A stretch of 64,000 nucleotides of DNA, from positions 1,612 through 65,611 of the forward strand of contig JAIXUV010000208.1 of NCBI GenBank assembly GCA_027483345.1, in the 5' to 3' direction. A program made the translations under genes and the position numbers. Below are positions 1,559 through 19,796 of this stretch, in pieces; within the stretch, counting starts at the first letter, position 1; each line of letters begins with the position of its first letter. Origin of the DNA: Verrucomicrobiales bacterium. GTDB taxonomy: Bacteria; Verrucomicrobiota; Verrucomicrobiia; Limisphaerales; UBA9464. The notes beneath the pieces are model-generated. The model was not told where the DNA came from. It saw only the letters and a program-made list of their open reading frames with translations, and made no database searches.

Positions 1559-1979
1559 CGGCACTACCTCCCGAATCACGGGAGATTACCACATTCCGAG
1601 GCGTTCTGGAAGGCTTGGCGGGAGCGGACCTGAAGCTGTCCGCTTTCCGCCCTGCCCAGTCCGAATCGCCCCAGGTCCGGCAACATTTCACGGACTCCCA
1701 CTGGACGGGTTTCCCGTGCCCGGAATAGGTTCACTCATTGCCGTGAAGTTCTTGTTCCGGAATCTGTTGGCCTCGCCGGTAGGTGAGCGTTCCCACCAAG
1801 GCCAAGCCCTCCTCTTCAATGCCCCAAGACTCGTCCGCCACGATCGGCTTCGAGGCCAAGGACTGGCTCATCGCTGACATTGCAACGCGCGTGAGCGCGG
1901 GCCCTGGCTGCGCAGCCACTCGACTGGACATGTGCGGAGCGCCAGTCCTACGGAGCCACTTCACGACCCCTCTTTGACT

Positions 1980-2840
1980 ATGGCCCGAATACCCCAAGGA
2001 AATGCCGGCACGGCGAACATCGGCTTTGAACAGAAGCTGTGGTTGGCGGCGGATAAACTGAGTTCGAACATGGACGCGGCGGAGTACAAGCACGTCGTCC
2101 TTGGCCTGATATTCCTCAAGTACATCTCCGACACCTTCCAGGAACACCGCGCCAAGCTCCTCGCCGGACAAGGAGAGTACGCCGGCGCCAAAGCCGAGGA
2201 CCCGGACGAGTACAAGGCAGAGAACATCTTCTGGGTGCCTTCCGAGGCCCGGTGGGCTCACCTCCAGGCGACCGCCCATCTCCCGGCCATCGGTCGGATC
2301 GTGGACGACGCCATGATCGCCATCGAGCGCGACAACCCAAGGCTCAAGGGAGTGCTTCCAAGAGACTACGCTCGCCCGGCACTCGACAAGCACCGCCTCG
2401 GCGAGCTGATCGACCTCATTGCCACCATCAGCCTCACCGTCGCCAGCGAGGGTGAGAAGACCCATCGTTCCGTCGATCTACTGGGCCGTGTGTACGAGTA
2501 CTTCCTCACCCGCTTCGCCAGCGCCGAGGGCAAGAACGGTGGCCAGTTCTACACGCCGTCTTGCGTCGTGCGCTGCCTCGTCGAGATGCTCGCACCTTAC
2601 AAGGGCCGCATCTACGACTCCGCTTGCGGCTCCGGCGGCATGTTCGTTCAGTCGGAGAAGTTCGTGGAATCCCACGGCGGCAAGATCGGCGACATAAGCA
2701 TCTACGGTCAGGAGAGCAACCCCACCACCCGACGGCTGGCGATCTTGAACCTCGCCATCCGGGGCATCGAGGCGGACTTCGGACCGGAACAGGCGGACAC
2801 CTTCCGCTACGACCTCCCTCAGTTGCGGGCAATCTATTGA
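1980..2840 (+). pseudogene. hsdM: truncated type I R-M methyltransferase subunit (HsdM N-terminal two-thirds, lacks NPPF)
   Basis: Has the HsdM N-domain ([36 protein letters not shown]), [11 protein letters not shown] and AdoMet motif [11 protein letters not shown]. The frame ends ...[15 protein letters not shown] before the NPPF catalytic motif. Composition turns AT-rich at about 2822-2845. Confidence 0.85.
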
Positions 2841-2929
2841 ATGGCTTGCCGTTGATTTAAGCCTGATATCCAATCTGGCTTGGCTATTCGTAGCAAAGTC
2901 TAGCTATTTAAAACAAAGTGATAAAAAAT

Positions 2930-5900
2930 ATGCCTAGCAATGATCAGAACAAATTCTTTCAGCAGGCCGAAGGATGGATTAATGAATCTCTGCCCGATGG
3001 ATTGGCGTTATCTAAGACGCTCCTAGACCAAGCGACTATAATCGGACAACTAACATGGTCCCCAGACGGGCGAGTTCTTGCCGCTTCGGGAAACGAAGGT
3101 TTGATTTGCTGGGAGGTTCGTTCTTGGAGGTGCCTCCCTCCGTTTGAAGGTCAAATGCGCCAATTCAATTCTATCGCTTTTGATCCGACAGGAGAAGTAA
3201 TCGCCTGTGGCAATGGTAATTATTCAGTAAACCTGTGGGAAGTGGCGAGTCAGAGGTTGCTAGTTTCTCTGAGTGGCCACAACAATAAAGTTGGTAGCGT
3301 ATCTTGGTCCCCGAATGGTGATCATTTTGCCTCGGCAATGATCGATGGGACCATTAGTATCTGGGACACAAAAACTTGGAATTCCCGAAGAATCGGTCCT
3401 TGGAAAGGTTTGAAACCTCAAAAAAAGCGAAAGGGTGTGATTTGCAGTGTTGCTTGGTCTTGGAACTCAAAACAAATTTCAGGAGCTTCGTACGACCTAG
3501 CAATTTGGGATCCAAACACAGGGAGTCGAATTTTTTTGGTACAAACTGATCATATTCTCTTGGACGTTGCATGGTCGCCAAGAATTCAAACGCATTTGCT
3601 GGCGGCAGGCTACTCGAACAATAGTGTTCAAATCTGGAACGCGAACACCAGAACCAAGTTTAGAGATCTTGAAGGTCATACATCTTCAGTGCAGTATGTA
3701 GCCTTTTCCTCCGACGGAACACTGCTTGCCTCCAGTTGTAGTAATAGTATAAGATTGTGGCGCTGTTCCGATTGGCAAGAAGTTGCTGTGATTAGAAATC
3801 GCCCCTTGGGACTATTTGGTCCTATTGAGTTTCATCCTACTTTGCCTCTCCTTGCTGCAGCTCAATCCAACATCGCGAAGGGCAACTCCCAAAGTGCTAT
3901 CCATATTCTGAAACTGGACCTGGCTCAGCTGCTTGGGCAGCCGCACAAAAGTGCGCACACTTACACTAGTGCAAAGATTGTATTGGTTGGTGAAACTAAT
4001 GTAGGAAAGTCGTATCTGGCACATCGTATGGCGACCGGAGAGCCACCGAAAGAGGGGGCTATCAATAGTACGCATGGCATGAAGTTTTGGCCGTTGGAAC
4101 CCGAACGGCTCAGCCCTAGGGCGAAGGCTCCCGTAGGAGAACGTCGCGATGTGGTGCTGTGGGACATGGGCGGGCAAGATGAATATCGGCTGATCCACCA
4201 ATTGTTCCTGCACGACACGACACTTGCGCTCGTGCTTTTTGATCCTACCCGAGGAGCTCCGGCTTTCAAAGAAGTAGAGACATGGAATAAGGCTCTAGAA
4301 AACCAACTCAGAGGCCGAACTGCGGTAAAGCTGCTTGTTGGTTCCAAACTTGATAAGCTATCAACGACCATTGACCGGCAAGCAGTGCAGCATCTGGTCA
4401 AAGTTTGCGGCTTTAGAGATTACTACGAAACGAGTTCACTCACTGGCCGCGGAGTCGTAGAACTGAGTGAAGCAGCTGCCGAAGCAATTGATTGGGATGG
4501 TCTGGGCAAGACTACTCGTCCGGAGCTGTTTCAAGCTATTCGGGATGAGATTGCGCGCCAGAGAAGTAATGGTGTAGTCGTGGTGCTCTTCGATGATCTT
4601 GATCGAGAACTACAGACCAACGAGGAATCTAGAACCTTCTCCTTGATGAAGCACGTCGTGGCTATGTCGTCCAATCCTGAAGCAGGAACCGAGGCCTTGA
4701 ATGCAGTCTGCAGCCAGCTTGCAAGCCAAGGGATCATCGCCCGTGCCAAAACCAGCAGTGGCAAGAGTGCGCTGATCCTCCGGGTCGAAGAAGTAGAACG
4801 CTACGCCGGCTCGCTCATCATTGCAGCCAAGAACAATCCACGTGGCGTTCCTGGATTGGAGCTTCGAAGTATCGCCCATGAGAACTTTTCTCTTCCAGGA
4901 ATATCGGACCAAGATCGTTTGCCACGCGCGCAAGAAAAACCGGTGCTCGAATGCACCGTGCAACTTCTGCTGGAACACGGCATCTGTTTCAAGCACGAAG
5001 GTTTGCTCATCTTCCCGTCACTCTTCGCGCACGCGTCTGAAGAAGCTGATGGCAAACTGCAGCATTCTGTTTCACTCTACTACGATTTCGCGGGTGCTAT
5101 TGATAACATCTATGCCTCTATGGTTGCATGGCTCGTGTTGTCCAAGGAGTTCGGCAAGGTGCGGCTCTGGTTGGACCGGGCGGAGTTTGAAGTTAAGGGC
5201 GGCGGCCTGTGCGGTCTGCGCAAAGTGGGTCGACTCGGTGGTTTTGCTCATGTGGATGTCTATTTCGAGAAAGCGACAGGCGATCGGCAGCGCATGGAGT
5301 TCATCAGTTTTGTAGAAGACCATCTGGCGCGGAATGGAGTGGAGATTCGCGAACATGTGGCAATTAAGTGCTCCTGTAATAACGAGTTCTCGGAGGACAC
5401 CCTGCGCCAACGTATCGCTCGTGGTGAAAAGAACGTGGTGTGCCCCGTGTGCGAAACCCGGCACAACTTGAGCGAAGGTGCGACTGCGTCTCGCGAACGT
5501 GATATGTCGATCAACCAACATACTTGGGCGCTGCGAACGCGAATCGAAGAGCTCCGACAAATTCTCACGGAGAGTGTGGTTCAAGTGCTAGGTAAAGCTA
5601 AAGCAGCGAATCCAGCCACCGATCCGATTCGAATTCTGCATCTCAGCGATCTCCATTTCACCGCGGCGACGCCAGTAAAGGCGAGGCTGCGTTGGCTGAT
5701 TGATGACATCAAACAGCATGGCGGTTTGGGATTCAATGAGTTGGACTATTTGGTGATCTCTGGCGACTTCACTGACAAGGGAAGTCTTGATGGATTTGAG
5801 AAGGCGTATGAGTTCGTGTCCAGATTGACAGAGGAGTTCGGTTTATCTGCCGAGCGTTGCATTTTTGTACCGGGAAATCACGACGTGAGCGACTTAGAAG

Positions 5901-6652
5901 AGGCATACGATTGGAAGAGAAAGCCGGATGGCCTTGAGGACGGCGAGTGGGTAAAGCAGGGCGAGATTTATCTTGTCAGGAATGCGGCGAAGTATCCGTT
6001 GCGCCTGAAGGCATTTTCGGACGACTTCTTTCACAAGTTTGTCCAGCGGCCCTACCCGTTAGATTTTGCGGCTCAGGGATTTACCGTGCCATTTTGGGAG
6101 ACTGGCCTGCAGTTCCTGATGCTCAACTCTTGCTGGCAGATAGACGGCTTTCACCGGAAGCGGTCAGGCGTGCATGTTGAAGCTGTCGCCAACGCAATCA
6201 AAGAGGCTCAGATACAGGAGAAAGCAGCGCGCGCTGCGGGCCAATTGTCAAGTGGCAAGCCGCTATTACGGATCGCGGTATGGCATCACGCCATCGCTGG
6301 ACCTGAGCAAATGACCAACACTAATTTTCTCGCCAATTTACAAAAGGCAGGCGTGCGATTAGGAATGCATGGCGATATTCATGAGTTACGTCGGGATGTA
6401 GTTGGACACTGGCATGAGCATGGAAAACAGCTCCATATCCTAGGTGCTGGGAGTTTCGGCTCGCCGCCAGAAAATCGGCCCGAGTCGGTGCCACGACTCT
6501 ACAACGTCATTGAGATCGATCGCGATTTGACTTCAATGAAGGTGCACACAAGGCAGCAGCCCAAGGTCGATGGCGCTTGGACTGGGTGGCACGAGTGGCC
6601 AAATCCCAAAGATCCTAGTAGCAAACTCTCGTACTACCGCGTTGACTTCTAA
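2930..6652 (+). CDS. WD40 - Roc-type small GTPase - COR-like - zinc ribbon - calcineurin-like metallophosphoesterase multidomain protein (ROCO-like)
   Basis: WD repeats (GHNNKVGSVSWSPNGDHFASAMIDGTISIWD; EGHTSSVQYVAFSSDGTLLASSCSNSIRLWR). GTPase motifs: G1 GETNVGKS (3989-4012), G3 DMGGQD (4163-4180), G4 SKLD (4343-4354), G5 ETSS. COR-like stretch (HGICFKHEGLLIFPSLF). CxC-x21-CxxC zinc ribbon (5369-5452). MPE motifs LSDLHF, SGDFTDKG, PGNHD, WHH, HGDIHE. The ORF opens at GTG 2918; ATG 2930 is the preferred start. Confidence 0.85.
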   Translation: MPSNDQNKFFQQAEGWINESLPDGLALSKTLLDQATIIGQLTWSPDGRVLAASGNEGLICWEVRSWRCLPPFEGQMRQFNSIAFDPTGEVIACGNGNYSVNLWEVASQRLLVSLSGHNNKVGSVSWSPNGDHFASAMIDGTISIWDTKTWNSRRIGPWKGLKPQKKRKGVICSVAWSWNSKQISGASYDLAIWDPNTGSRIFLVQTDHILLDVAWSPRIQTHLLAAGYSNNSVQIWNANTRTKFRDLEGHTSSVQYVAFSSDGTLLASSCSNSIRLWRCSDWQEVAVIRNRPLGLFGPIEFHPTLPLLAAAQSNIAKGNSQSAIHILKLDLAQLLGQPHKSAHTYTSAKIVLVGETNVGKSYLAHRMATGEPPKEGAINSTHGMKFWPLEPERLSPRAKAPVGERRDVVLWDMGGQDEYRLIHQLFLHDTTLALVLFDPTRGAPAFKEVETWNKALENQLRGRTAVKLLVGSKLDKLSTTIDRQAVQHLVKVCGFRDYYETSSLTGRGVVELSEAAAEAIDWDGLGKTTRPELFQAIRDEIARQRSNGVVVVLFDDLDRELQTNEESRTFSLMKHVVAMSSNPEAGTEALNAVCSQLASQGIIARAKTSSGKSALILRVEEVERYAGSLIIAAKNNPRGVPGLELRSIAHENFSLPGISDQDRLPRAQEKPVLECTVQLLLEHGICFKHEGLLIFPSLFAHASEEADGKLQHSVSLYYDFAGAIDNIYASMVAWLVLSKEFGKVRLWLDRAEFEVKGGGLCGLRKVGRLGGFAHVDVYFEKATGDRQRMEFISFVEDHLARNGVEIREHVAIKCSCNNEFSEDTLRQRIARGEKNVVCPVCETRHNLSEGATASRERDMSINQHTWALRTRIEELRQILTESVVQVLGKAKAANPATDPIRILHLSDLHFTAATPVKARLRWLIDDIKQHGGLGFNELDYLVISGDFTDKGSLDGFEKAYEFVSRLTEEFGLSAERCIFVPGNHDVSDLEEAYDWKRKPDGLEDGEWVKQGEIYLVRNAAKYPLRLKAFSDDFFHKFVQRPYPLDFAAQGFTVPFWETGLQFLMLNSCWQIDGFHRKRSGVHVEAVANAIKEAQIQEKAARAAGQLSSGKPLLRIAVWHHAIAGPEQMTNTNFLANLQKAGVRLGMHGDIHELRRDVVGHWHEHGKQLHILGAGSFGSPPENRPESVPRLYNVIEIDRDLTSMKVHTRQQPKVDGAWTGWHEWPNPKDPSSKLSYYRVDF

Positions 6653-6808: not shown

Positions 6809-8350
6809 ATGCTCAACGGCGAAATTCGCAGTAAAGTTGATGCCCTTTGGAATGCCTTCTGGTCCGGGGGCATAGCCAATCCGCTCGAGGTCATCGAGCA
6901 GATCACGTATCTGCTCTTCTTGAAGCGCTTGGATGATCTCCACACCCTAGAGGAGAACAAGGCGGCGCGCCTGAAACTTCCCCAGCTCGAACGCCGCGTT
7001 TTTCCCGAGGGCAGGGATCCCCGGGGTAGGGACTATTACGATTTCCGGTGGTCCCGCTTCAAACACCTTGAAGCCAAGGAGATGTTCGATGTGGTGAACG
7101 ACCATGTGTTCCCCTTCCTTCGCACGCTCGGTGGTGACAGCTCCACCTACGCGCACCACATGAAGGACGCACGCTTCACCATCCCGACGCCGGCACTGCT
7201 GGCCAAAGTGGTGGATATGATCGACGGCGTGCCCATGGAGGACCGCGATACCAAGGGCGACCTCTACGAGTACATGCTGGGGAAGATCGCCAGCGCCGGG
7301 CAAAACGGGCAGTTCCGCACTCCCCGGCACATCATCCAGCTCATGGTCGAGCTGACCGCGCCGTCCCCGCGGGACGTTATCTGTGATCCCGCCTGTGGCA
7401 CTGCCGGCTTCCTTGTGGCGGCTGGGGAGTACCTGCGCCAGCACCACCCTGGGATTCTCCGCGGCCCCGAACTCAAGGAACACTTCCACCACCACCTGTT
7501 CCATGGATTCGACTTCGACAACACCATGCTCCGCATCGGCAGCATGAATCTGCTGCTGCACGGCGTGGATAATCCCAATATCCGCTACCGCGATTCGCTG
7601 GGACAGGATCACTCGGGAGAGGAGGAGAAGTACACGCTGATCCTAGCCAATCCGCCTTTCGCCGGATCGCTCGACTACGAGAACTGCGCCAAGGACCTCC
7701 AGCAGATCGTGAAGTCGAAGAAGACCGAACTGCTCTTCCTCGCTCTCTTCCTGCGCCTGCTCAAGTCCGGCGGACGCGCCGCTGTCATCGTGCCCGACGG
7801 CGTGCTCTTCGGCTCGTCCAACGCGCACAAGACCCTGCGCCAGATCCTTGTCGAGGAACAGAAGCTGGACGCCGTCATCTCCCTGCCCGGCGGCGTTTTT
7901 AAGCCCTACGCCGGCGTCTCCACCGCCATTCTCCTCTTCACCAAGACCAACTCCGGTGGCACGGACCACGTCTGGTTCTACGATGTGGACGCCGACGGCA
8001 TGTCGCTCGACGACAAACGCACCGAACTACTCCCGCCGGAGAAGCTCGGCCCAGTGCCCAGGACTGCGCTCTCGGCCGACGACCACGCGAAGAACAATCT
8101 GCCCGACATCCTCGCCCGCTGGACGCAGCGCGACCGGGCCGAGCGCCAAAATCCGCGCACCGCACAGAGCTTCTGTGTGCCCAAGGCCGACTTGGCCGCG
8201 CAGGGCTACGACCTCTCGCTCAACCGCTACAAGGAAGTCTTCCACGCCGAAGTCGCGCACCGCCCGCCCGCTGAAATCCTGAAAGCCCTCGGCCAACTGG
8301 AGGCGGTGATTCAGCAGGGCATGAAGGAACTGGAGGAGATGCTGAAGTGA
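6809..8350 (+). CDS. hsdM: type I restriction-modification system methyltransferase subunit M
   Basis: HsdM_N-like start (KVDALWNAFWSGGIANPLEVIEQITYLLFLKRLDD), GQFRTPRHI, motif I DPACGTAGFL and motif IV LANPPFAGS. Its stop overlaps the hsdS start (GTGA at 8347-8350). Confidence 0.95.
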   Translation: MLNGEIRSKVDALWNAFWSGGIANPLEVIEQITYLLFLKRLDDLHTLEENKAARLKLPQLERRVFPEGRDPRGRDYYDFRWSRFKHLEAKEMFDVVNDHVFPFLRTLGGDSSTYAHHMKDARFTIPTPALLAKVVDMIDGVPMEDRDTKGDLYEYMLGKIASAGQNGQFRTPRHIIQLMVELTAPSPRDVICDPACGTAGFLVAAGEYLRQHHPGILRGPELKEHFHHHLFHGFDFDNTMLRIGSMNLLLHGVDNPNIRYRDSLGQDHSGEEEKYTLILANPPFAGSLDYENCAKDLQQIVKSKKTELLFLALFLRLLKSGGRAAVIVPDGVLFGSSNAHKTLRQILVEEQKLDAVISLPGGVFKPYAGVSTAILLFTKTNSGGTDHVWFYDVDADGMSLDDKRTELLPPEKLGPVPRTALSADDHAKNNLPDILARWTQRDRAERQNPRTAQSFCVPKADLAAQGYDLSLNRYKEVFHAEVAHRPPAEILKALGQLEAVIQQGMKELEEMLK

Positions 8351-9444
8351 AATGGAACACTGTAAGATTCGAAGACGGTGTCTATTCTCGCAGCTCCGGC
8401 GCAACTGGTCTGGCTCAAAGCCTTTGGGAAGAAGGCGGGCGCTATCCTGTGATTGGCCAAGGAGCCAAATTCATCGAAGGTAGAACCAACCGCGCAGATC
8501 TTTTGGTCACACCCAATCCAGCCGTCGTTCTTTTCGGTGGGCATACCCGTCGCACAAAATTCGTAGATATCCCGTTTGTACCAGGTCCAAACGTCAAGAT
8601 CCTCGAACCTAAGGGAATTCTAGACGCGAAGTTCCTGTTCTATTTTCTCGAGCAGCTTCCAATCGAGAGCCGCGGCTACGCCGATCACTTTCCTGAAGTT
8701 CGACGGAGTTCAATCCCTGTGCCGACGCTGCTCCAGCAGCGGCGGATTGCGGAGGTGTTGGACCAAGCGGAGGCGTTGCGGGCCAAGCGTCGCGCTGCCC
8801 TCGCCCAACTCGACTCCCTACCCCAATCCCTCTTCCTCGACCTCTTCGGCGACCCAATAGTTAATCCGAAGATGTGGCCACGGAAACAACTCTCCGAAAT
8901 CGGCACACTTGACCGGGGAGTATCCAAGCATCGCCCACGCAACGATCCGGAGCTCTTAAATGGGCCGTATCCCTTGGTGCAGACTGGCGAAGTCGCAAAC
9001 TGCAACGGATACATCCGCGAATACCACAGCACCTATTCCGAAATTGGCCTGCGGCAGAGCAAACTGTGGCCTTCAGGAACTCTTTGTATTACGATTGCTG
9101 CGAACATCGCAAAGACCGGAATTCTAACATTCGACGCATGCTTTCCAGACAGCATCGTGGGATTCCGTGCTGAAGATCCCGCGATGGTAGAGTTCGTGCG
9201 AGGCTGGCTTTCGTTTCTCCAAAAGTCGCTCGAAGACGCCGCTCCCGAATCGGCTCAAAAGAATATCAACTTGGCTCTGTTACGAAACCTCGCGATTCCA
9301 CTTCCCCCAATCGGATTGCAGCGCGAATTCGCCCGGCGAGTGACAGCGGTGGAGGCGCTGAAGTCGGCGCAGCGCGCGTCGCTGGCGGAGCTGGACGCGC
9401 TCTTCGCCACCCTCCAGCACCGCGCCTTCAAAGGAGAACTCTAA
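8347..9444 (+). CDS. hsdS: type I R-M specificity subunit S (two TRDs, two conserved regions)
   Basis: TRD1, then central conserved helix (QQRRIAEVLDQAEALRAKRRAALAQLDSLPQSLFLDLFGDP), then TRD2, then C-terminal conserved helix (LQREFARRVTAVEALKSAQRASLAELDALFATLQHRAF). Translationally coupled to hsdM. Confidence 0.9.
   Translation: MKWNTVRFEDGVYSRSSGATGLAQSLWEEGGRYPVIGQGAKFIEGRTNRADLLVTPNPAVVLFGGHTRRTKFVDIPFVPGPNVKILEPKGILDAKFLFYFLEQLPIESRGYADHFPEVRRSSIPVPTLLQQRRIAEVLDQAEALRAKRRAALAQLDSLPQSLFLDLFGDPIVNPKMWPRKQLSEIGTLDRGVSKHRPRNDPELLNGPYPLVQTGEVANCNGYIREYHSTYSEIGLRQSKLWPSGTLCITIAANIAKTGILTFDACFPDSIVGFRAEDPAMVEFVRGWLSFLQKSLEDAAPESAQKNINLALLRNLAIPLPPIGLQREFARRVTAVEALKSAQRASLAELDALFATLQHRAFKGEL
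9322..9427 (+). repeat. direct repeat copy A (hsdS 3' conserved region)
   Basis: About 105 nt, cgcgaattcgcccggcgagtgacagcggtggaggcgctgaag...ccagcaccgcgcc. Matches 10566-10670 with about 8 mismatches by hand alignment. Confidence 0.85.
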
Positions 9445-9452
9445 ACCAACAA

Positions 9453-10529
9453 ATGAAGCTGCGTTGTTCAAATAAGGAACATGGTTTTGAACCTCTGCTG
9501 GAGAAAATACCGGCTGCTAAGCGAGTCACCATCTTGAGCTATTCGCTCGACGAGAATCCCAAAAGCTATTTGTGGGAAACGTTACACAAACTACCAGCAG
9601 CAAGTGATTTGACGGTCATCACGAATATTCCGGGCAGGTGGGATTCCTACGGTCGAAATCAGACGTCGAAGATGAAGGATCGATTTGATGCATATTTGGA
9701 TAACCTCGCCGCGGAGAAATTTGAATGTGCGTTTGAAGTTTACTTCTCCTTCAATAACCATGCGAAAGTGCTTGTCGTCGATGACATGGCCTACGTCGGC
9801 TCAGCGAATTTCACAGAAGCGTCAGCGCAGAAATGGGAGGCAGGGGTAATCCTCTCCGATAAAAGTGAAGTTGATGAGCTTCAGGCATTCATAAATAGCA
9901 TTCGCGCTTCGTCAATTCCTATGCTCAAGGCTGCCACTTCCAAGGAGGCGCGCCCTCTTCTAAAGCTGCTGCGGTGGAGTTTTGAAATCATCCGCTCTGT
10001 TCGCGAGGAAAATGGTTTCATCCTGTCGGACGATCAACACTGGATCGACGATCCGGAACGGAGTCAAAGAGAAAGCGTCCAGATCTCAGATGGACTAAGA
10101 GCATTCTTGAGCGAGTGCCGAACCGCAGCTGAGGCGTTACTGAAAAGATGTGATGGAGACCAAGAAGTCCTTAACGTAGATATTTTGCTCGATGTAATTG
10201 GTTTCGTCCGCTACTTCGATGAGCAGGATTACAACGATTCTCTCGCGAAACCATTCGATGAATCAGCTCAATCAAGCCACCTAGTCGAAAAGCTGCTTAT
10301 CGAATGTTCCAATGACGCCAACGTGGACGATGTGATGCGCCACCCGGAATACCATGAGCAACTTGAAGCAGCCAGAAGCGCCAGCGAAAAGGAACTGGAT
10401 GGAGCTGTTGTCAAGGCCGTAGACGATCTCGTAAAATACATAGAAAAGACTATCAGTAAATTGCGGAGTTCATTTGGGCCAGAGGATGTCTCACCTGAAA
10501 TCGACAACACCGGAAGCAAGAATAGATGA
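9453..10529 (+). CDS. PLD-family (single HKD) nuclease-like protein with an uncharacterised C-terminal helical region
   Basis: HKD motif NNHAKVLVVDDMAYVGSANFTEAS (HxK-x4-D-x5-GSxN). AT-rich gene: hand counts of single 60-nt lines give about 37-50% GC. Confidence 0.8.
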   Translation: MKLRCSNKEHGFEPLLEKIPAAKRVTILSYSLDENPKSYLWETLHKLPAASDLTVITNIPGRWDSYGRNQTSKMKDRFDAYLDNLAAEKFECAFEVYFSFNNHAKVLVVDDMAYVGSANFTEASAQKWEAGVILSDKSEVDELQAFINSIRASSIPMLKAATSKEARPLLKLLRWSFEIIRSVREENGFILSDDQHWIDDPERSQRESVQISDGLRAFLSECRTAAEALLKRCDGDQEVLNVDILLDVIGFVRYFDEQDYNDSLAKPFDESAQSSHLVEKLLIECSNDANVDDVMRHPEYHEQLEAARSASEKELDGAVVKAVDDLVKYIEKTISKLRSSFGPEDVSPEIDNTGSKNR

Positions 10530-10679
10530 GCAATCTCCCCTCTTCCTCAATCCCAAGCACTTAGGCGCGAACTTGCCCGGCGAGCGACTGCGGTGGAGGT
10601 GTTGAAGTCGGCGCAGCGCGCGTCGCTGGCCGAGCTGGACGCGCTCTTCGCCAACCTCCAGCACCGCGCCCTTAATTGA
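10530..10679 (+). pseudogene. hsdS: orphan remnant of an hsdS 3' end (about 49 codons)
   Basis: Translates to ISPLPQSQALRRELARRATAVEVLKSAQRASLAELDALFANLQHRALN*, paralleling the hsdS tail IPLPPIGLQREFARRVTAVEALKSAQRASLAELDALFATLQHRAF. No TRD or start codon lies upstream. Confidence 0.75.
10566..10670 (+). repeat. direct repeat copy B (hsdS 3' conserved region)
   Basis: Partner of 9322-9427. GC-rich island between two AT-rich genes. Confidence 0.85.
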
Positions 10680-10684
10680 GAATT

Positions 10685-11836
10685 ATGAACCTGTCATCCT
10701 CATGCTTTAAGGACCAAAAACTCCAAAGGCACATTGAGAAAAATGGTAAGGTGGGGAGTTGCGATGGGACGGGAGATAATTATGTGAAGGTGGTTGCGGC
10801 AAATGCTCTCAGTTCGCTATTCAAACCGCTGCTTGATCTGTACGAGCCATTTCGCGGTTCGACTTGGGATTACTTGCATACTCTTTCGGGTAACACATTG
10901 TTTGATTGCATTCAGGACGACGATGGATGGGAGGTTTTTGCTAAAGCCATTTCTCCCGAAGTCGGGTGTCAAATCTTGGATGCAATTCGCGATGTCACCA
11001 GTCCCGACGGAAGTATTCGAAGTGATGAGGAATGGGTTAACAAAAACCAGTTTTATCAGGCGATGCAGCTCGGTTGGTGGGACGCGTTTTCCAAGCAGTT
11101 GAAGCACGCCCGCCGATTCATTCCTGATGTCGGCAATAAAAGCGTGGGTGACCCGCGCAAAGTTCTTTGTGAACACTTGAGCGAGTTCGAGTACCCGCTT
11201 TTAGTGGGCAAGACGCTTTATCGAGCGCGAATCGGGTGGGATGACAAATCGGCGGTTGGACATTCGCTTCCAATCGCCCCCGGCAAAGAAATGGGTGCCC
11301 CTCCACCGGAGAAGGCTACAGCCGGCCGGGCCAATCCTGCAGGCGTGAGCTACTTGTATGTTGCGGAGCAAGAGGCGACGGCGGTGCAAGAAGTGCGAGC
11401 GTACGTCGGCGCAAAAGTTACTGTGGCTAAACTAGAGGTCACCAAACCGTTGAGGTTGGTAAATGTTGCAAAAACAAGGCGCGTTTTCAGTCCATTCCTG
11501 CATCCCAATTTAAAAAATGTTCTGTTTGCTTACGACATCCTTGCTGTGCTCAACGAAAAGCTGTCACGACCAGTTGATCCGAACACAAGCCACCTCGATT
11601 ACCTGCCGACTCAATATCTCGCCGAGGTTGTGTTAGATTACGGCTACGACGGGATTCGATACAAAAGCGCAGTGTCCGAGGATGGAGTCAATGTCGTGGT
11701 TTTTGACCACGGAAAGACTGCTGTTTTTGAAACGAAGCTGATCGAAGTTACGGCTATGAAGCTGAAGTATCGCGACCTCTCTGGCTACTCACGAGGATCG
11801 CCGAAGTCTCGGATGAAATCGAGAAAATCACTATGA
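10685..11836 (+). CDS. RES-domain protein with a 190-aa N-terminal extension
   Basis: RES signature: R in TAGRANPAGVSYLYV, E in AEQEATAVQEVRAY, S in DGIRYKSAVSEDGVNVVVFD. The N-terminal Cys-containing domain is unassigned. AT-rich. The ORF opens at TTG 10676; ATG 10685 is preferred. Confidence 0.8.
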   Translation: MNLSSSCFKDQKLQRHIEKNGKVGSCDGTGDNYVKVVAANALSSLFKPLLDLYEPFRGSTWDYLHTLSGNTLFDCIQDDDGWEVFAKAISPEVGCQILDAIRDVTSPDGSIRSDEEWVNKNQFYQAMQLGWWDAFSKQLKHARRFIPDVGNKSVGDPRKVLCEHLSEFEYPLLVGKTLYRARIGWDDKSAVGHSLPIAPGKEMGAPPPEKATAGRANPAGVSYLYVAEQEATAVQEVRAYVGAKVTVAKLEVTKPLRLVNVAKTRRVFSPFLHPNLKNVLFAYDILAVLNEKLSRPVDPNTSHLDYLPTQYLAEVVLDYGYDGIRYKSAVSEDGVNVVVFDHGKTAVFETKLIEVTAMKLKYRDLSGYSRGSPKSRMKSRKSL

Positions 11837-12348
11837 GAAGCTATGCGCTCAAGCCAGCACTCCAAGCGCTTGAGTTCGATGGCGCGCTGCTCGCGCGGGG
11901 CTTCTGGCTCTACGTTTGGGAAATCACAGCCGGGGACGGTGGCACGGTTCACTACGTGGGCCGAACGGGAGACAGTTCCTCGTCCAACGCGCAGTCGCCT
12001 TTTGCCCGGCTCAGCCAGCACCTCGGGAAAAACCAGAACTCCAACGCGCTCAGGAGGAATCTGGAAAAAGCAAAGGTGGTTCCCGAGGAATGCCAGAAGT
12101 TCCGGCTCTTCGCCTGTGGTCCGATCTTTCCGGAGTCCAAGAGTCGAGACGAACACATGCGGTCGCGTGACAGCGTTGCAGCTCTAGAGAAGGCGCTGGC
12201 GGACGCAATGCGCGCGGCGGGCTACGACATGATGAATGAGGTGCGGTCCCGCAAGACTCCTGACCGTCAGTTGTGGCAAGTGGTCGTTGGCACCTTTGGG
12301 GCGCGGTTTCCAAAGCTCCAAAATCTGCCCTCGCCCTGCGATTCGTGA
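11833..12348 (+). CDS. GIY-YIG nuclease-like protein
   Basis: FWLYVWEITAGDGGTVHYVGRTGD resembles the UvrC-type GIY...YVG motif. It is followed by a conserved Arg (FARLSQHL) and a Glu helix (VAALEKALADAMRAAGYDMMNE). ATGA overlap with the upstream RES gene; GTGA overlap with the downstream RES gene. Confidence 0.6.
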   Translation: MRSYALKPALQALEFDGALLARGFWLYVWEITAGDGGTVHYVGRTGDSSSSNAQSPFARLSQHLGKNQNSNALRRNLEKAKVVPEECQKFRLFACGPIFPESKSRDEHMRSRDSVAALEKALADAMRAAGYDMMNEVRSRKTPDRQLWQVVVGTFGARFPKLQNLPSPCDS

Positions 12349-12941
12349 CCAAGTTCCACCCCAACCCACGGTTCCGAGAGTTCCGCGACCTCCTTGCGGC
12401 AAACACGGACCTGTTCCAGCCGTGGTCCGGCACTCTGTTCCGGTTCCAAGCGGTGGATTTTCCCGCCCCGGAGGACGTGCTGAGCGGTGCGGGCGCGAAA
12501 TGGCGTGGCGGACACTGGAACCCGCCCGGAGTGCCGACACTCTACGGCAGCACCACGGACACGGCGGCCCTAGAGGAGGGCAAGGCGAACGACCGCTATG
12601 CCGGGATCGTTACCCGTTGTCCCCGCCTGTTGGTGGCGGTGGAAGCCCGTTTGGAACGAGTTCTGGACCTCGGCGCCGCTCTGGTGCGACGTCGGCTCGG
12701 CCTGAAACTGGTGGAGTTGCTGGCAGGGGACTGGCGGAAGCTGACGGATGCGGGCCAGGAGAGCCTGACCCAAGGCATGGGCCGGGCAGTCTACGTGGCG
12801 GGCGGAAGCGGCCTCCTCGCGCGATCCGCGGCCTGCAATGGCGGGGTCAATGTCGTGGTGTTCCCCGGCAATCTCCGACCGGGAGAAAGCCTGGCGGTGG
12901 TGGAGGAGGGGAAGCTGCGCAGGCTGACCCGTGGAAAATGA
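12345..12941 (+). CDS. RES-family toxin (RES-Xre type)
   Basis: SGAGAKWRGGHWNPPGVPTLYGSTTDTAALEE and GLLARSAACNGGVNVVVF match the RES-domain layout. GTG 12345 overlaps the preceding stop. The track ORF opens at ATG 12273, which would overlap the previous gene by 76 nt. Confidence 0.75.
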   Translation: MTKFHPNPRFREFRDLLAANTDLFQPWSGTLFRFQAVDFPAPEDVLSGAGAKWRGGHWNPPGVPTLYGSTTDTAALEEGKANDRYAGIVTRCPRLLVAVEARLERVLDLGAALVRRRLGLKLVELLAGDWRKLTDAGQESLTQGMGRAVYVAGGSGLLARSAACNGGVNVVVFPGNLRPGESLAVVEEGKLRRLTRGK

Positions 12942-13386
12942 AATTGTTACCTGCAAAAGTGCAGGTTATGTTGCGAGCAGTGTTATGCGTACCGTTGCCA
13001 AGCCAAAGAACGTCGCCGGAAGCCTGACCCAATTCCGGTTCAGCCATCGTGGAGCCGGGGACTTCTCCCAGCTCATGCGGGTCTATCGGGAGAAGTTCCA
13101 TCTCGCCCAGCCGGTGGTGGTGCGGTTGACCGGTTTTTCGCCGCGTTCGGTGGCCAAATGGGCGCAGGGCGAGACGCCGTCGCAGAAGCAGGAGAAGGCC
13201 CTGGTGGAGATGGACCGGTTGCTGGACGGCTTGGCGCGGGTGATGGAAGCCCAGGAGATCGGTCGCTGGATGACCACGGCCAACCCCGCGTTCGATGGTT
13301 CGACCCCGGCGCAGGTGGTCGAGCGGGGTGAAGCCGACCGCATCTGGCGCATGCTTTATGACGTGGAGTCAGGTCAGCCGGGCTGA
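12931..13386 (+). CDS. Xre/MbcA/ParS-like antitoxin (DUF2384 C-terminal domain)
   Basis: The C-terminus IGRWMTTANPAFDGSTPAQVVERGEADRIWRMLYDVESG is typical of the DUF2384 toxin-binding domain. The N-terminal part (LTGFSPRSVAKWAQGE) is HTH-like. The start is GTG 12931 (overlapping the RES stop) or ATG 12985. Confidence 0.8.
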   Translation: MENEIVTCKSAGYVASSVMRTVAKPKNVAGSLTQFRFSHRGAGDFSQLMRVYREKFHLAQPVVVRLTGFSPRSVAKWAQGETPSQKQEKALVEMDRLLDGLARVMEAQEIGRWMTTANPAFDGSTPAQVVERGEADRIWRMLYDVESGQPG

Positions 13387-13491
13387 ACGCCTGCCGATGG
13401 CCACAGCCTCCATTTCGGTTTGCCGACGAAGCTGTTCACCCTCTTCGCAGCCCGCGAGCACGGAGCCGTCCTATAAGAACGTTGAGCCCTC

Positions 13492-14445
13492 GTGCAACGG
13501 ATTCTAAGTCATCACCTCTGGCGGGAAATCTCTGCCAGGTCGACAAAAGCCAAGCGACGCCAGGCTGCCATCGCATACGTCACCGAGGACCTTCTTCGCT
13601 TCAAGCGGGGTGACCTGTTGGTGACCGATGCCTCCAGGGCGGCAATCCGTTCGGGCGAGACCAGCGCTAAGCTCCTGGCGACTTTGTTGCGGCGGGGTGT
13701 GCGGGTGCATTCCTGCGCAGGCCTGCATGCCAAGGCCATCCTGCTCGACGAGGTGGCTGTGATCGGTTCGGGCAACATGTCGCGGGCTTCACGTTCCACC
13801 CTGATTGAAGCGGCTGTGATGACCGACGCCCCTTCGACCGTCAGCGGGGTTGCTTCGCTGATTGCCCAGCTCGCTCAACAGTCACCCGAACTGGACCGTG
13901 ACGCCGTGGCTGGTCTTTGCGCGATCAAGGTGGTTCGCCGTGGCGGGCCGAACGTCGTGGCAAAACGCAACCTTCAGCCAAAGATAAAGCCTCTTGGACA
14001 CAATGCGTGGCTGGTGGCGGTGCATGAATTCGACGAGGATTTGGTTCGAAAGGAACAGAGGTTGGTGGAAGCGACGATGGCGGAGTTGGTTCAACGGCAT
14101 GGCTGTCGGGCGGATTCCATCGGATGGATCCGATGGGACGGCGCTGGCCCCTTTCTGAAGGCGGGTAAACCCGGTGATCGCATCATTCAGGTCTACAGCC
14201 GGAAGGACGGCTCAAGGCCGGTGTCAGTCCTTAAGTCAGTTGCCGTCCTGGATCGCAAGCGCCGGGCTGGAACAACGTTTGTCTTCGTGGCGCAACCGTC
14301 TGGACGAAGGCCAGAGATGTCCTTCGCGAACTTCAATCGGTTCTTGAAAAAACTCGGTGTGGGGCGACCGCCAGGGGCAACCACGGAACGCCTGCTTGAT
14401 CCCAGCCTTGCCGATTCCATTTCAAGTGGATGGAACTCGGCCTAA
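13492..14445 (+). CDS. PLD-family (single HKD) nuclease-like protein
   Basis: HKD motif GLHAKAILLDEVAVIGSGNMS in the N-terminal 130 aa. The C-terminal 180 aa are unassigned. GTG start. Confidence 0.8.
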   Translation: MQRILSHHLWREISARSTKAKRRQAAIAYVTEDLLRFKRGDLLVTDASRAAIRSGETSAKLLATLLRRGVRVHSCAGLHAKAILLDEVAVIGSGNMSRASRSTLIEAAVMTDAPSTVSGVASLIAQLAQQSPELDRDAVAGLCAIKVVRRGGPNVVAKRNLQPKIKPLGHNAWLVAVHEFDEDLVRKEQRLVEATMAELVQRHGCRADSIGWIRWDGAGPFLKAGKPGDRIIQVYSRKDGSRPVSVLKSVAVLDRKRRAGTTFVFVAQPSGRRPEMSFANFNRFLKKLGVGRPPGATTERLLDPSLADSISSGWNSA

Positions 14446-14475
14446 TCCGCAACCTCCGGCTTCTGCCGAGTCGCA

Positions 14476-16206
14476 ATGCAACAACAGAACATCCCGATCA
14501 GCTCGCTGGTGGACATGTATAAATCCGGTGGACTGCGGCTGCCCGAGATTCAGCGGCATTACGTGTGGCGTTCGACCCGCGTGCGCGACTTGCTGGATTC
14601 TCTGTATCGGGGTTATCCCAGTGGCTCGATCCTGATGTGGGAGACGGACGAGCCGGTGCCCACACGTGACGGGGCCATCGCCCAGGACACTACGGCGTTC
14701 GCCGGCCGGAAGCTGCTGCTCGACGGCCAGCAGCGTATCACCTCGCTCACTGCCGTGCTGAACGGGGAACCGGTAAGAGTTCGAGGCAGGCAGCGCCCCA
14801 TAGACATTCTCTTCAACCTGGAGCATCGCGAAGGACCTCCCACCGAGGTGACGGACGTGGAAGGTGACCAAGACTTTCCCATGACGCCCGGCGATGAGGA
14901 GAGCGATGAGTCCGAGGAGGTCGGGGTCGGCGAGGCGGCTGTCGCAGAGCGCTTCAAGGACTCCACGTTTGTCGTGGCGAGTCGCGCCTTGCAGTCCCAA
15001 CCCCAATGGGTTTCGGTTAGTGAGGTCTTCCGGACCGCGAGTGACTCAACAATTCTCAAGAAGTCCGGCGTGGTCTCCTTCGACGATCCGCGATTCCAGA
15101 AGTATTCCGAGCGCCTGAATCGCCTCCGACAGATCGCCCGTTATCAGTACGTGGTCCACGTGCTGGAGCGTTCGATGAATTACCAGGAAGTGACCGAGAT
15201 TTTCGTCCGGGTGAACTCCCTTGGAGCCAAGCTTCGGTCGTCAGATCTGGCTCTTGCCCAGATGACCTCCCGCTGGCCAAACCTGCTCAAGGAATTGGAA
15301 GCCTTCCAAGAGGAATGCGAGCAGAGCTGGTTCACCATCGACCAGGGGCAACTGGTGCGGGCCGTTGTGGTCTTCGCCACCCACCAGTGCCTTTTCCACA
15401 CGGTGGGGAAGACCCCGATTTCAGACCTGAAGCAGGGATGGGCGGAAGCCAAGGAGGGCCTCCGATTCGCCATCAACTTCCTGCGTAGCAACGCCGGGAT
15501 CGAGGACGAAACGCTGCTATCATCGCCCATGTTCATCCATGTGTTGGCTGCGATCAGCCGCAAGAAGGACAACCGGTTGAGCCAGGCCGAGCAGAATTCG
15601 CTGCTTCACTGGCTGCTGGTGGCCAATGCGCGGGGACACTTCTCCCGCGGCTCGTCAGAGACCGTGCTGAACGAGGATCTGGCCATCGTTTTCCGCAGCG
15701 GCCAAGTGAGCGCCTTGTTGGACCCATTGAAGCGCCAGTTCGGGCGACTGCATATCGAGCCAGATGACCTCGCGAACCGGGGAGCCAACAGCCCGTTGTT
15801 CTCCCTAGCCTATCTGGCTCTGAAGGCGGGTGGGGCGAAGGACTGGTTCAGCGGGCTGGGGCTGTCGCTCACCCACCAGGGAAAGCTCCACTTCATCCAG
15901 TGGCACCACATCTTTCCCAAGTCCTTGCTCAAAGAGCGTCGATACGAAACAGGCGAGATCAACGAGATCGCCAACATGGCCTTCATCTCCGGCCAGACCA
16001 ATCGTCGAATCAGCAACAAGGAACCATCGGAATATCTCGCGGGCATCGTCGCCGATCAAGGGCAGCAGGCCCTCGACAGCCAGTTGGTTCCAACAGATCC
16101 AGCTTTGCTCCAAATGGACAAGTACCGCGAGTTCCTTCGGGTTCGCCGAGTATTGCTCGCCCAGAGGATGAACGAGTTCATCCAGGAGAATTCCGGAATG
16201 GCATGA
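14476..16206 (+). CDS. GmrSD/BrxU-like type IV restriction enzyme (DUF262 + DUF1524)
   Basis: N-terminal DUF262 motifs (LPEIQRHYVW, DGQQRITSL). C-terminal His-Me finger (IQWHHIFPKSLL ... NMAFISGQTNRRISNK). Confidence 0.9.
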   Translation: MQQQNIPISSLVDMYKSGGLRLPEIQRHYVWRSTRVRDLLDSLYRGYPSGSILMWETDEPVPTRDGAIAQDTTAFAGRKLLLDGQQRITSLTAVLNGEPVRVRGRQRPIDILFNLEHREGPPTEVTDVEGDQDFPMTPGDEESDESEEVGVGEAAVAERFKDSTFVVASRALQSQPQWVSVSEVFRTASDSTILKKSGVVSFDDPRFQKYSERLNRLRQIARYQYVVHVLERSMNYQEVTEIFVRVNSLGAKLRSSDLALAQMTSRWPNLLKELEAFQEECEQSWFTIDQGQLVRAVVVFATHQCLFHTVGKTPISDLKQGWAEAKEGLRFAINFLRSNAGIEDETLLSSPMFIHVLAAISRKKDNRLSQAEQNSLLHWLLVANARGHFSRGSSETVLNEDLAIVFRSGQVSALLDPLKRQFGRLHIEPDDLANRGANSPLFSLAYLALKAGGAKDWFSGLGLSLTHQGKLHFIQWHHIFPKSLLKERRYETGEINEIANMAFISGQTNRRISNKEPSEYLAGIVADQGQQALDSQLVPTDPALLQMDKYREFLRVRRVLLAQRMNEFIQENSGMA

Positions 16207-16415
16207 AGCGGATGAGTCCACCGACTCTCAACTCTTGACCGGGAATCCGCGAGGGGACACTGCGTGATCTTCCCGCCATCCTTGCCGGCTGAGGAAAGAA
16301 GACGTCGCTGGATCAGGCTTCAAAACGATTACTCGACCGGCAAAATCATTATTTTGAGGGGGCATTCGATCAATTCTGTTACAAGCCCGTCCGGCCGTTT
16401 CGCCGGCCCAGACTC

Positions 16416-19400: not shown

Positions 19401-19796
19401 CGGACGAATCAGCCATTGACCGCGTTGGACCTGTCGGAACTGGAGCGGATGTTCCGGGAGAGCGGGGTGGCGAGTCCGAAGCAGTTGCAGCGGGCGAAGG
19501 ACGAATCCGAAGGGCTGGGTTTGTTCGTCCGGTCTTTGATTGGGATGGACCGTGAAGCGGCGAAGCTGGCTTTCAGCGAGTTCACCGCCGGGAGGACCTT
19601 GAGCGCGAACCAGATCGAGTTCGTGAACCTGATGGTGGACCACCTGACCGAGCACGGCGCCATGAAGCCCGAGTTGCTCTACGAGTCCCCGTTCACCGAT
19701 CTCAATCCGCAGGGACCCGAAGGCGTCTTCAGTTCCTCGCAGGTGGACCAGTTGTTGGAGCTGCTCTCCCGGGTCCGGACGCGGGCGGTGGCCTGA
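16416..19796 (+). CDS. hsdR: type I restriction endonuclease subunit R
   Basis: N-terminal DUF4145-like region. PD-(D/E)xK (GFVDYVLWGDDGLPLALVEAKR). Helicase motifs VMATGAGKTRT, IIIDEAHRS, GLTATP, QMLGRGTR. C-terminal EcoEI_R_C-like tail (LSANQIEFVNLMVDHLTEHG). Confidence 0.95.
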   Translation: MSQFAFLKSEWPELYEAASKAESLAFPDARTACFHARRALELLVHWLYRHDAGLKLPYQDNLSALLHEPTFKATAGEAVFAKTVLINRLGNGAVHGHRPVPEIDSLTAVRELFHVAYWLAHTYGRGTKPPPGLFFDPKGLPKSTTLPNQSLEQLQRLETELRDRDQKLSELFADKTELDAELTRLRGEIAAAKKANTAQADTHNYSEAETRDCFIDLLLREAGWPLNQERDREFPVDGMPNNEGRGFVDYVLWGDDGLPLALVEAKRTQRDPRIGQQQAKLYADCLEKQFRRRPVLFYTNGYEHWMWDSANHPPRAVQGFFKKSELELMIQRRTTRKSLATAKINETIVGRYYQTRAIRRIGEAFEKDHDRKALVVMATGAGKTRTVIALADLLMRCNWAKRVLFLADRVALVNQAVNAFKKHLTESSPVNLVTEKDIEGRVYVSTYPTMMGLIDETRDGQRRFGVGHFDLIIIDEAHRSVFQKYRAIFAYFDSLLVGLTATPKDEVDRNTYGLFDLEDGVPTDAYPLEDAVADHFLVPPKAVSVSLKFPRDGIRYDELSEEEKEEWDAKEWDDDGAVPSQVEAEAVNKWLFNQDTVDKVLEHLMTHGLKVAGGDRLGKTIVFAKNNAHAEFIAQRFNANYPHYKGEFARVITFKTEYAQTLIDQFSIRDRSPHIAISVDMLDTGIDVPEVVNLVFFKLVRSKTKFWQMLGRGTRLCPDLFGPDQHKEFFFVFDYCQNLEFFSQNPDSTEGALGESLGKRLFKARLEVIGELDRKLAGVAGERKEPEQYLRSDVAALLQVEVAAMNLDNFVVRPKRRLVERYSKPESWRDLSVESFHELAQEVAGLPTELEPEDEEAKRFDLLLLHLQLAVLRAEPAFARLRDQVRAVAGLLEEKSGIPMVHEQLPLIQDIQTDEWWEDVTTPMLENVRRRLRSLVKFIDKRHRKPIYTNFEDVMGPATTVGLPGFAPHDTFEKFRDKARVFLREHQEHLAIHRLRTNQPLTALDLSELERMFRESGVASPKQLQRAKDESEGLGLFVRSLIGMDREAAKLAFSEFTAGRTLSANQIEFVNLMVDHLTEHGAMKPELLYESPFTDLNPQGPEGVFSSSQVDQLLELLSRVRTRAVA

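Follow-up and report, generated by a model that had tools for sequence, protein, structure and literature searches.

The window analyzed here, a 64,000-nt stretch of contig JAIXUV010000208.1 (NCBI GenBank assembly GCA_027483345.1) from a Verrucomicrobiales bacterium, holds a Type I restriction-modification (R-M) operon on its plus strand. According to the map of open reading frames (ORFs) and Pfam, hsdM and hsdS are followed by 7 kb of genes on the same strand before hsdR is reached (Table 1). The first of these embedded genes, termed the PLD gene below, is separated from the second, a long RES-domain gene, by an additional copy of the 3' end ("tail") of hsdS. In what follows, copy 1 is the tail of the intact hsdS, and copy 2 is the additional one. 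Copy 2 is very probably the tail of a former hsdS that once preceded the RES gene, and the PLD gene and the RES block would be separate acquisitions, joined at the distal conserved region of hsdS. It is also likely, if somewhat less certain, that the PLD gene was inserted at this region, between the full hsdS and the older RES cargo, and that this is one case of a general process by which such operons stack cargo.

A direct repeat of the hsdS tail around the PLD gene

The preliminary description of this DNA had reported a duplication of about 105 nt of the hsdS 3' end on both sides of the PLD gene. A blastn alignment bears this out: positions 9321-9426 match positions 10565-10670 without gaps over 106 nt, of which 8 are mismatched (92.5% identity, E ~4e-38), and with looser repeat criteria the match grows to 127 nt at 88%. 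The mismatches are at positions 9328, 9330, 9341, 9345, 9356, 9358, 9387 and 9410, that is, six in the first 38 nt and two in the next 68 nt (Fisher p = 0.024), and the copies share identical runs of 28, 22 and 16 nt. The PLD gene begins 8 nt past the hsdS stop and ends 35 nt ahead of copy 2, so the earlier placement of the flanking genes is correct. The earlier finding that the PLD and RES genes are AT-rich also holds, their GC contents being 0.48 and 0.50, whereas hsdM is at 0.62 and both repeat copies are at 0.73-0.75. One detail did not survive: the weaker similarity said to extend back to 10530 (ISPLPQSQAL versus IPLPPIGLQ) is no better than that of shuffled sequence (p = 0.71). The stretch of 35 nt from the PLD stop to the repeat is thus not detectably derived from hsdS, and a remnant reaching to the "IPLPP" motif at 10530 was rejected.

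Read in the frame of the hsdS tail, copy 2 gives exactly the translation previously assigned to it, RRELARRATAVEVLKSAQRASLAELDALFANLQHRALN followed by a stop. Its differences from copy 1 include amino acid changes in four codons, and three are synonymous. A change of GGA to TGA creates a premature stop at 10677-10679, three codons early. The original stop of the remnant (10686-10688) overlaps the RES start codon (10685) as ATGA at 10685-10688. Copy 2 therefore has the appearance of a decaying hsdS 3' end that still carries its native stop/start junction to the RES gene.

That the repeat might be an assembly artifact, or reflect generic similarity among HsdS coiled coils, can practically be discounted, given also the E value above. 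The same hsdS has a central conserved region (8700-8870), which had been named as the control for generic similarity; it gives no DNA-level alignment to the tail, so the repeat is not merely conservation of coiled coils or helices. For a population check, we used Logan contigs of 8 public runs from two freshwater/aquatic studies, at a word depth of about 5-10x. Because these independently assembled contigs are 100% identical to the window through both copies, the repeat is not an assembly artifact.

An extra partial hsdS beside a Type I operon is a hallmark of phase-variable systems (shufflons or invertons; PMC7672463, PMC7394358). It is nonetheless most improbable that copy 2 is a silent hsdS' cassette of such a system. 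The remnant has no target-recognition domain (TRD), is direct and not inverted, and has a premature stop. Moreover, the operon ORFs scanned with Pfam include no integrase, transposase or recombinase family, and the contigs of the 8 runs contain one arrangement only. No inverted repeats flank the PLD gene, and no intrinsic terminator was found in any intergenic gap of the operon. Analysis of the remnant for attC-like folding, Rfam families and promoter or terminator signals gave nothing informative; fold z-scores of the tail were -0.3 to -0.5 for three of four strands and -2.3 for the fourth.

A candidate third, heavily decayed tail relic at 13426-13487 (plus strand), just upstream of the PLD-like gene, lacks statistical support. 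Its translation, LFTLFAAREHGAVL followed by a stop, resembles the LDALFATLQHRAF.. tail by eye, but its nhmmer E value of 0.73 is within the range of shuffled sequence.

hsdS tails at the seams of related operons

The comparison set consisted of 80 loci that encode close HsdM relatives (74-90% amino acid identity) and are drawn from many phyla; all are distant from the window, at about 70% nucleotide identity. Repeats were aligned by using blastn, and domains were assigned by using Pfam. To find scars, each locus was queried with its own hsd gene ends.

The closest homologue of the RES gene (70% amino acid identity) is in locus L086, whose order is hsdM, full hsdS, RES, a 132-nt hsdS-tail remnant, GmrSD, Fic and hsdR. 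In this locus, the RES start overlaps the end of the complete hsdS as ATGA, and positions 3352-4566 (hsdS tail plus RES) are colinear with window positions 10565-11779 at 70%. The preliminary description had proposed a search for an "empty site" in which the RES gene directly follows hsdS. The hsdS-RES junction of L086 is such a site, although in a distant relative (~70% nucleotide identity) and not in a conspecific.

The same description had suggested a search for donor loci in which the PLD gene adjoins hsdS, and donor-like loci were found. Window positions 9296-10511 (tail, spacer and PLD gene) are colinear with L005 1562-2779 (73%) and with L016 13223-14407 (remnant plus PLD gene, 68%). 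Eight PLD homologues, including that of the window, occupy the corresponding cargo slot of Type I operons (54-67% amino acid identity), and all eight have an hsdS tail 8-13 nt upstream. This tail is the true end of hsdS in the window, L005, L090, L091 and L092, and it is itself a remnant in L016 and L087; L089 also has the tail ahead of its PLD gene, and its contig begins inside that tail. A tail remnant is recognizable downstream of the PLD gene in seven of the eight, with L089 having only a heavily decayed stretch that was recognized by eye.

A simpler operon is found on JGI contig 3300075153, which has the gene order hsdM-hsdS-GmrSD-hsdR and carries P0154, an HsdS protein that is 72% identical to that of the window and has the same TRDs (both are 72% identical in amino acid sequence). 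In L093, a shorter contig with the same HsdS, GmrSD begins 2 nt after the hsdS stop. The L093 genes are 70.5% (hsdS) and 72% (GmrSD) identical in nucleotide sequence to those of the window, where the two genes are 5 kb apart. These operons form a nested series: hsdM-hsdS-GmrSD-hsdR, then hsdM-hsdS-RES-tail-GmrSD-Fic-hsdR (L086), then the window, in which a PLD gene and tail are added ahead of RES. The series suggests that cargo was stacked serially, the newest being placed beside hsdS; GmrSD would have been acquired first, RES later and PLD last. Because an hsdS-tail remnant between two genes marks a cassette boundary, the PLD and long RES proteins are best regarded as separate acquisitions and not as partners.

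Direct repeats flanking a single gene of atypical composition could also have a local origin: the hsdS 3' end might have been duplicated in tandem in this genome, or a mobile element carrying the PLD gene might have generated a target-site duplication. We consider a local event very unlikely. At 106 nt, the repeat far exceeds a transposition target duplication, and the operon provides neither a transposase or integrase family among the ORFs scanned nor inverted repeats around the PLD gene. Copy 2 is essentially no closer to copy 1 than to tails of other genomes, and together with the RES gene it is orthologous to an intact hsdS-RES junction elsewhere. Finally, PLD homologues at 54-67% identity are present in other phyla with tails on both sides.

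Similar scars recur in this operon family. Extra hsdS tails were found in 14 of 84 loci, duplicates of the hsdR head in 5 loci, and duplicates of the hsdM tail ahead of hsdS in at least 5 loci. When slot length was considered for the 60 operons in which the hsdS end and the hsdR start are both present, scars of hsd gene ends were absent from all 39 with a slot shorter than 2.5 kb and present in 11 of the 21 with a slot of 2.5 kb or longer. The right ends of the remnants all lie -19 to +8 nt from the hsdS stop, and their left ends vary, at 42 to 150 nt. No remnant exceeds 150 nt or retains TRD2. Two loci, L016 and L059, have in-frame chimeras in which the first ~22 hsdR codons are followed by the final 17-25 of hsdS, as confirmed by the hsdR N-termini. 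The L016 chimera reads MSDFTFLQSEWPVLHDAASKA up to the fusion point and DALFAFLQHRAFKGEL from there to its stop.

Duplicated hsdM 3' ends were also observed immediately before hsdS; each such remnant is separated from the actual hsdM stop by 0.2-2.5 kb of additional sequence. Seams of the same kind, with cargo between hsdM and hsdS, therefore occur at that junction as well. In L008 (11003-11194), a 129-nt hsdS-tail remnant is located 60 nt past the real hsdS stop without a cargo gene between the tails. It gives the impression that hsdS was replaced, with its former tail left in place and no cargo gained.

Most remnants (15 of 17) are open to the native hsdS stop, and several form linker ORFs. 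In these, a start codon overlaps the stop of the upstream gene by ATGA or GTGA, and the stop of the remnant overlaps or abuts the next start. For example, the overlaps are -4 nt at both ends of the L016 chimera, and are -4 nt upstream and +3 nt downstream of the remnant in L086. In 8-9 of 10 cases, the overlapping start shares the reading frame of the tail, versus one in three expected by chance. This preference suggests that selection might maintain translational coupling across the seam. Several remnants remain close to the functional tail over their last 40-60 nt and are decayed in the 5' part, a gradient seen in the window, L086 and L006.

Table 1. Features of the window operon and scars in related loci
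Feature	Locus and positions	Strand	Evidence or remark
hsdM (Type I methyltransferase)	window 6809-8350	+	Pfam N6_Mtase (9.7e-60) and HsdM_N; 4-nt overlap with hsdS start
hsdS (specificity subunit, two TRDs)	window 8347-9444	+	Pfam Methylase_S
Repeat copy 1: functional hsdS distal conserved region (C-terminal helix)	window 9321-9426	+	blastn, repeat search
PLD cassette gene: single-HKD PLD/Nuc-like nuclease domain and unassigned C-terminal half	window 9453-10529	+	Pfam PLDc_2, RE_NgoFVII, PLDc
Left junction: ATG overlapping PLD stop (ATGA) opens 12-codon out-of-frame ORF, MSNLPSSSIPST then stop	window 10526-10564	+	not hsdS-like
Repeat copy 2: very probably a dead hsdS 3' remnant ("linker")	window 10565-10688	+	robust repeat 10565-10670; colinear with intact hsdS tail and RES of L086
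Long RES-domain gene	window 10685-11836	+	Pfam RES (2.4e-17); L086 homologue abuts full hsdS
Further cargo: 171-aa ORF, short RES and Xre-type partner, PLD-like gene (13492-14445), GmrSD-like gene (14476-16206)	window 11833-16206	+	ORF map, Pfam
hsdR (DUF4145 N-terminus, ResIII helicase, EcoEI_R_C)	window 16416-19796	+	Pfam
hsdR'::hsdS' chimera ORF	L016 15950-16063		ATGA overlap with neighbors at both ends
hsdR'::hsdS' chimera ORF	L059 13553-13699		ATGA overlap at upstream end
hsdR-head duplicate in cargo slot	L006 about 6032-6151		includes 18-nt tail match
hsdR-head duplicate in cargo slot	L058 14181-14252
Duplicated hsdM 3' ends	L009 3241-3303; L046 12036-12170; L015 13212-13271; L022 14085-14219; L005 437-556; L013 3396-3443

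Routes of joining and loss

We propose the following sequence of events. An hsdS would once have stood directly ahead of the RES gene, coupled to it by the ATGA stop/start overlap, and copy 2 would be its leftover 3' end. The PLD gene would then have been placed between the complete hsdS and this older cargo, with the right-hand breakpoint in the hsdS distal conserved region. It might have brought along an upstream hsdS tail of its own and a spacer of 8-13 nt, or it might have come as a cassette of PLD gene plus tail, and either event would leave a copy of the tail on each side of it. More generally, this process may operate throughout a widely transferred Type I family with the order hsdM-hsdS-cargo-hsdR, whose HsdR has a DUF4145 N-terminus and EcoEI_R_C, and in which cargo would be stacked in the hsdS-hsdR slot. 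Each seam would retain a 40-150-nt hsdS tail, at times as an in-frame fusion with the first ~22 hsdR codons. The 3' end of the remnant would supply the native ribosome-binding region and stop/start junction for the next gene. Copies of the tail could thereafter act as short homology arms for the exchange, addition and, in principle, deletion of cassettes, without a dedicated recombinase. The window instance appears to be a clean but partly decayed example of this pattern.

The alternative that deserves the most attention is that the seam is purely a scar of operon fusion. In this scenario, an operon hsdM-hsdS-PLD-hsdR and another of the form hsdM-hsdS-RES-...-hsdR were joined by a single illegitimate or microhomology deletion, or by an unequal crossover, that ran from the beginning of the hsdR coding sequence (its first codons) into the final ~40 codons of hsdS. 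The tail would persist only because longer deletions would destroy the translation start region of the RES gene. We regard this as unlikely on balance, although several observations fit it. The in-frame hsdR'::hsdS' chimeras of L016 and L059 are clear, and because of them we accept that new seams can arise by fusion of two whole operons. Variable left ends with fixed right ends are also as this explanation predicts, and the junction classes differ among PLD lineages. In the window itself, positions 10526-10555 resemble the 5' end of hsdR and its first codons (ATGAGCAA.TTC..CTTCCTCAA; shuffle p ~0.015), but the match is marginal when the ATGA is left out (p = 0.14). That the left junction is a relic of an hsdR 5' end is suggestive only.

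Three loci provide evidence against fusion as the whole explanation. L016, L090 and L087 share one junction between a PLD end and a remnant, "...GKYG(R/G)" and a stop, then "MAAKT(M/I)DALF..RGEL" and a stop. The genes that follow are unrelated, with no blastp hit among them: a 492-amino-acid PLD protein in L016, an HATPase_c protein and then DUF4325 in L090, and a 251-amino-acid ORF and then Nmad3 in L087. In a three-way alignment, the sequences are conserved up to the stop codon of the tail and cannot be aligned immediately after it. One junction with three different neighbors therefore requires a later exchange at or within the tail. In addition, the hsdS of the window shares its TRDs with the hsdS of the operon whose only cargo is GmrSD, which is easier to reconcile with insertion behind a resident hsdS than with wholesale replacement, and fusion does not readily account for remnants that never exceed 150 nt or retain TRD2.

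The tails are also mosaic. Copy 1 shares 97-98% identity with the tails of hsdS in L006, L046, L009 and L005, yet the hsdM genes of L006, L046 and L009 are only 82-85% identical to that of the window. For L086, the corresponding values are 81% for the tail and 84% for hsdM. These comparisons use the window's own pairs, as an all-pairs ungapped survey was unreliable because C-terminal lengths vary between loci. Conservation of tail DNA beyond that of hsdM implies either recent exchange of the tail segment or a constraint at the DNA or RNA level. When L047 is added to the L006, L046, L009 and L005 comparison, tails are 94-98% identical and hsdM, where present, is 76-85% identical, among metagenome-assembled genomes of Verrucomicrobiota and Planctomycetota. 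Synonymous sites of the hsdS tails are conserved across those phyla too.

The preliminary description had proposed that the hsdS segment served as a homology arm or recombination site. The empty site in L086, the donor-like loci, the shared junctions and the confinement of scars to long slots support this segment as the place of joining. As to the manner of joining here, RecA-type homologous exchange and illegitimate fusion are both candidates. We put at about even the chance that the joining in the lineage of the window used tail homology, for example by entry of a PLD-plus-tail unit into a resident tail or by exchange between a donor linker and the resident tail.

Several observations weigh against stacking by way of the tail. 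The left junction of the window is unique and looks illegitimate, possibly hsdR' fused to hsdS', and the founding event therefore need not have used tail homology. The linker in the window is broken, its ATGA-coupled ORF being out of frame with the tail and its premature stop lying 6 nt before the RES start codon, so a coupling function is not evident here. Copy 2 is 92.4% identical to copy 1 and 90-91% identical to tails of other loci; because it is barely closer to copy 1, donor and recipient cannot be assigned and the crossover point cannot be mapped. Similarly, the PLD tree is poorly resolved, with support only for the pairing of L089 and L092, so junction classes cannot be mapped rigorously onto it. 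Recognizable scars occur in only about half of long slots. Neither a deletion of the PLD gene nor a presence/absence variant was found in the contigs of the 8 runs, in which rare variants are invisible at a depth of ~5-10x. The protein collection contains no near-identical HsdS with a hybrid C-terminus, the closest being 72% identical.

These last two points bear on the earlier suggestion that recombination between the copies would cleanly delete the PLD gene. With identical runs of 28, 22 and 16 nt, RecA-type deletion is possible at low frequency. The product would not be perfectly clean: the predicted HsdS would have an altered, shortened C-terminus, ending in ...HRALN instead of ...HRAFKGEL. 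A joint of 9321 to 10565, the variant that such a deletion would produce, was not seen in the contigs of the 8 runs; this negative is weak, as assembled contigs of this kind do not reveal rare variants. Metagenome contigs were also scanned for two patterns, the RES-start and the PLD-end/ATGAGC junctions, and neither gave a match.

Cargo genes and relation to known systems

The embedded genes belong, by predicted family membership, to groups associated with defense: PLD/DrmC-like, RES and GmrSD/HEC-05. PADLOC matches of the PLD gene to DrmC are weak and confined to the HKD region, and the protein has no PDB relative by sequence. The GmrSD gene of the window matches the HEC-05 model of Payne et al. 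A more distant PLD homologue (P0012; L088 1464-2525, 43% amino acid identity) adjoins a BREX PglZ/BrxC cluster. A more distant RES homologue (P0042; L094 7001-8131, 43%) shares its island with a large Eco57I-type methylase, a gene with an ADP-ribosyl exotoxin domain and REase-ARP. Because these homologues reside in other defense islands, the PLD and long RES genes are not confined to Type I slots, and they look like free-standing defense cargo.

Two other features of the window were noted. The spacer between GmrSD and hsdR (16207-16415) consists of 210 nt of non-coding sequence. The corresponding gap measures 11 nt in the minimal hsdM-hsdS-GmrSD-hsdR operon, and in L086 Fic is separated from hsdR by 7 nt. 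A second, unrelated hsdM at 1932-2840 (plus strand; 32% amino acid identity to the operon's HsdM) is truncated after ~120 of 311 N6_Mtase positions and is directly upstream of a large WD40-Roc-metallophosphoesterase gene (2918-6652). This truncated hsdM is possibly a further trace of cargo having entered a Type I operon.

Both the embedding of genes in R-M operons and long target duplications are already known. Insertion with long target duplication was reportedly first described by Nobusato et al. in 2000.

Furuta, Abe and Kobayashi (2010, PMC2853133) describe R-M units that lack mobility genes and lie between direct repeats of their target; these repeats exceed 30 bp (46-420 bp) and often overlap the 3' end of a gene. 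The seam in the window resembles these insertions in that its direct repeats exceed 30 bp (106 nt), a single tail is present at the hsdS-RES junction of L086, and the insert has no evident recombinase. In their cases, a whole R-M system enters a chromosomal target, and homologues of R and M genes within the insert are the criterion. Here, the target is the 3' end of hsdS inside an R-M operon, the insert is a single gene other than R-M (PLD), the target is reused serially, and the empty site is found only in a distant relative. Transposon insertion does not fit, given a duplication of 106 nt, no terminal inverted repeats and no transposase in the ORFs scanned.

Recombination at conserved regions of hsdS is known to reassort TRDs, and phase-variable hsdS invertons have been described (PMC3874165, PMC7672463, PMC7394358). 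The likeness is that conserved helices act as short islands of DNA homology and as crossover points, and here tail alleles are mosaic relative to hsdM. The difference is that unrelated genes are gained and stacked downstream and no new specificity results; inverted repeats are also absent, the remnant lacks a TRD, and the scanned ORFs include no invertase family.

Integron cassette arrays offer an analogy only. As in integrons, the cassettes would consist of one gene each, in one orientation, with a repeated boundary element and expression from upstream. Unlike in integrons, no IntI family occurs in the operon ORFs scanned, and the boundary element is derived from coding sequence, is not structured (three of four strands) and has variable left ends. 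We tentatively raise the further idea, which we think has rather less than an even chance of being right, that the hsdS 3' tail is a portable cassette adaptor independent of recombinases: a conserved homology arm of 40-110 nt, at which single defense genes would be inserted, swapped or excised, combined with a linker ORF coupled via ATGA at both ends. If so, captured genes would be expressed as part of the operon, and Type I operons would be integron-like collectors of immune genes.

Defense genes embedded in Type I R-M operons are well established, from PrrC in EcoprrI to the "guilt-by-embedding" survey of Payne et al. (bioRxiv 10.1101/2024.01.29.577857). Genes nested in these operons are now used to discover anti-phage systems, and their route of acquisition has been left at a "genomic sink", the term invoked in that survey. 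The preprint names GmrSD-like proteins as frequent embedded cargo; its text does not contain "hsdS" or "recombination", and it describes no repeats or scars at cassette boundaries. Our literature searches did not turn up the hsdS tail as a serially reused boundary of embedded cargo, hsdR'::hsdS' chimeras or coupled linker ORFs, and the pattern of tail linkers was not found in them.

The window operon shares with the operons of Payne et al. its same-orientation cargo between hsd genes and its GmrSD cargo. A practical rule for annotation follows from the seams: a short hsdS-tail ORF should be read as a cassette boundary, and genes on either side of it need not form one system. Leftover tails would record the order of acquisition. 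Their survey is a catalogue of cargo, whereas here the seams themselves are the finding, and they point to a concrete, testable route in which the conserved end of hsdS, and at times the start of hsdR and the end of hsdM, would be reused as a boundary for stacking and exchange.

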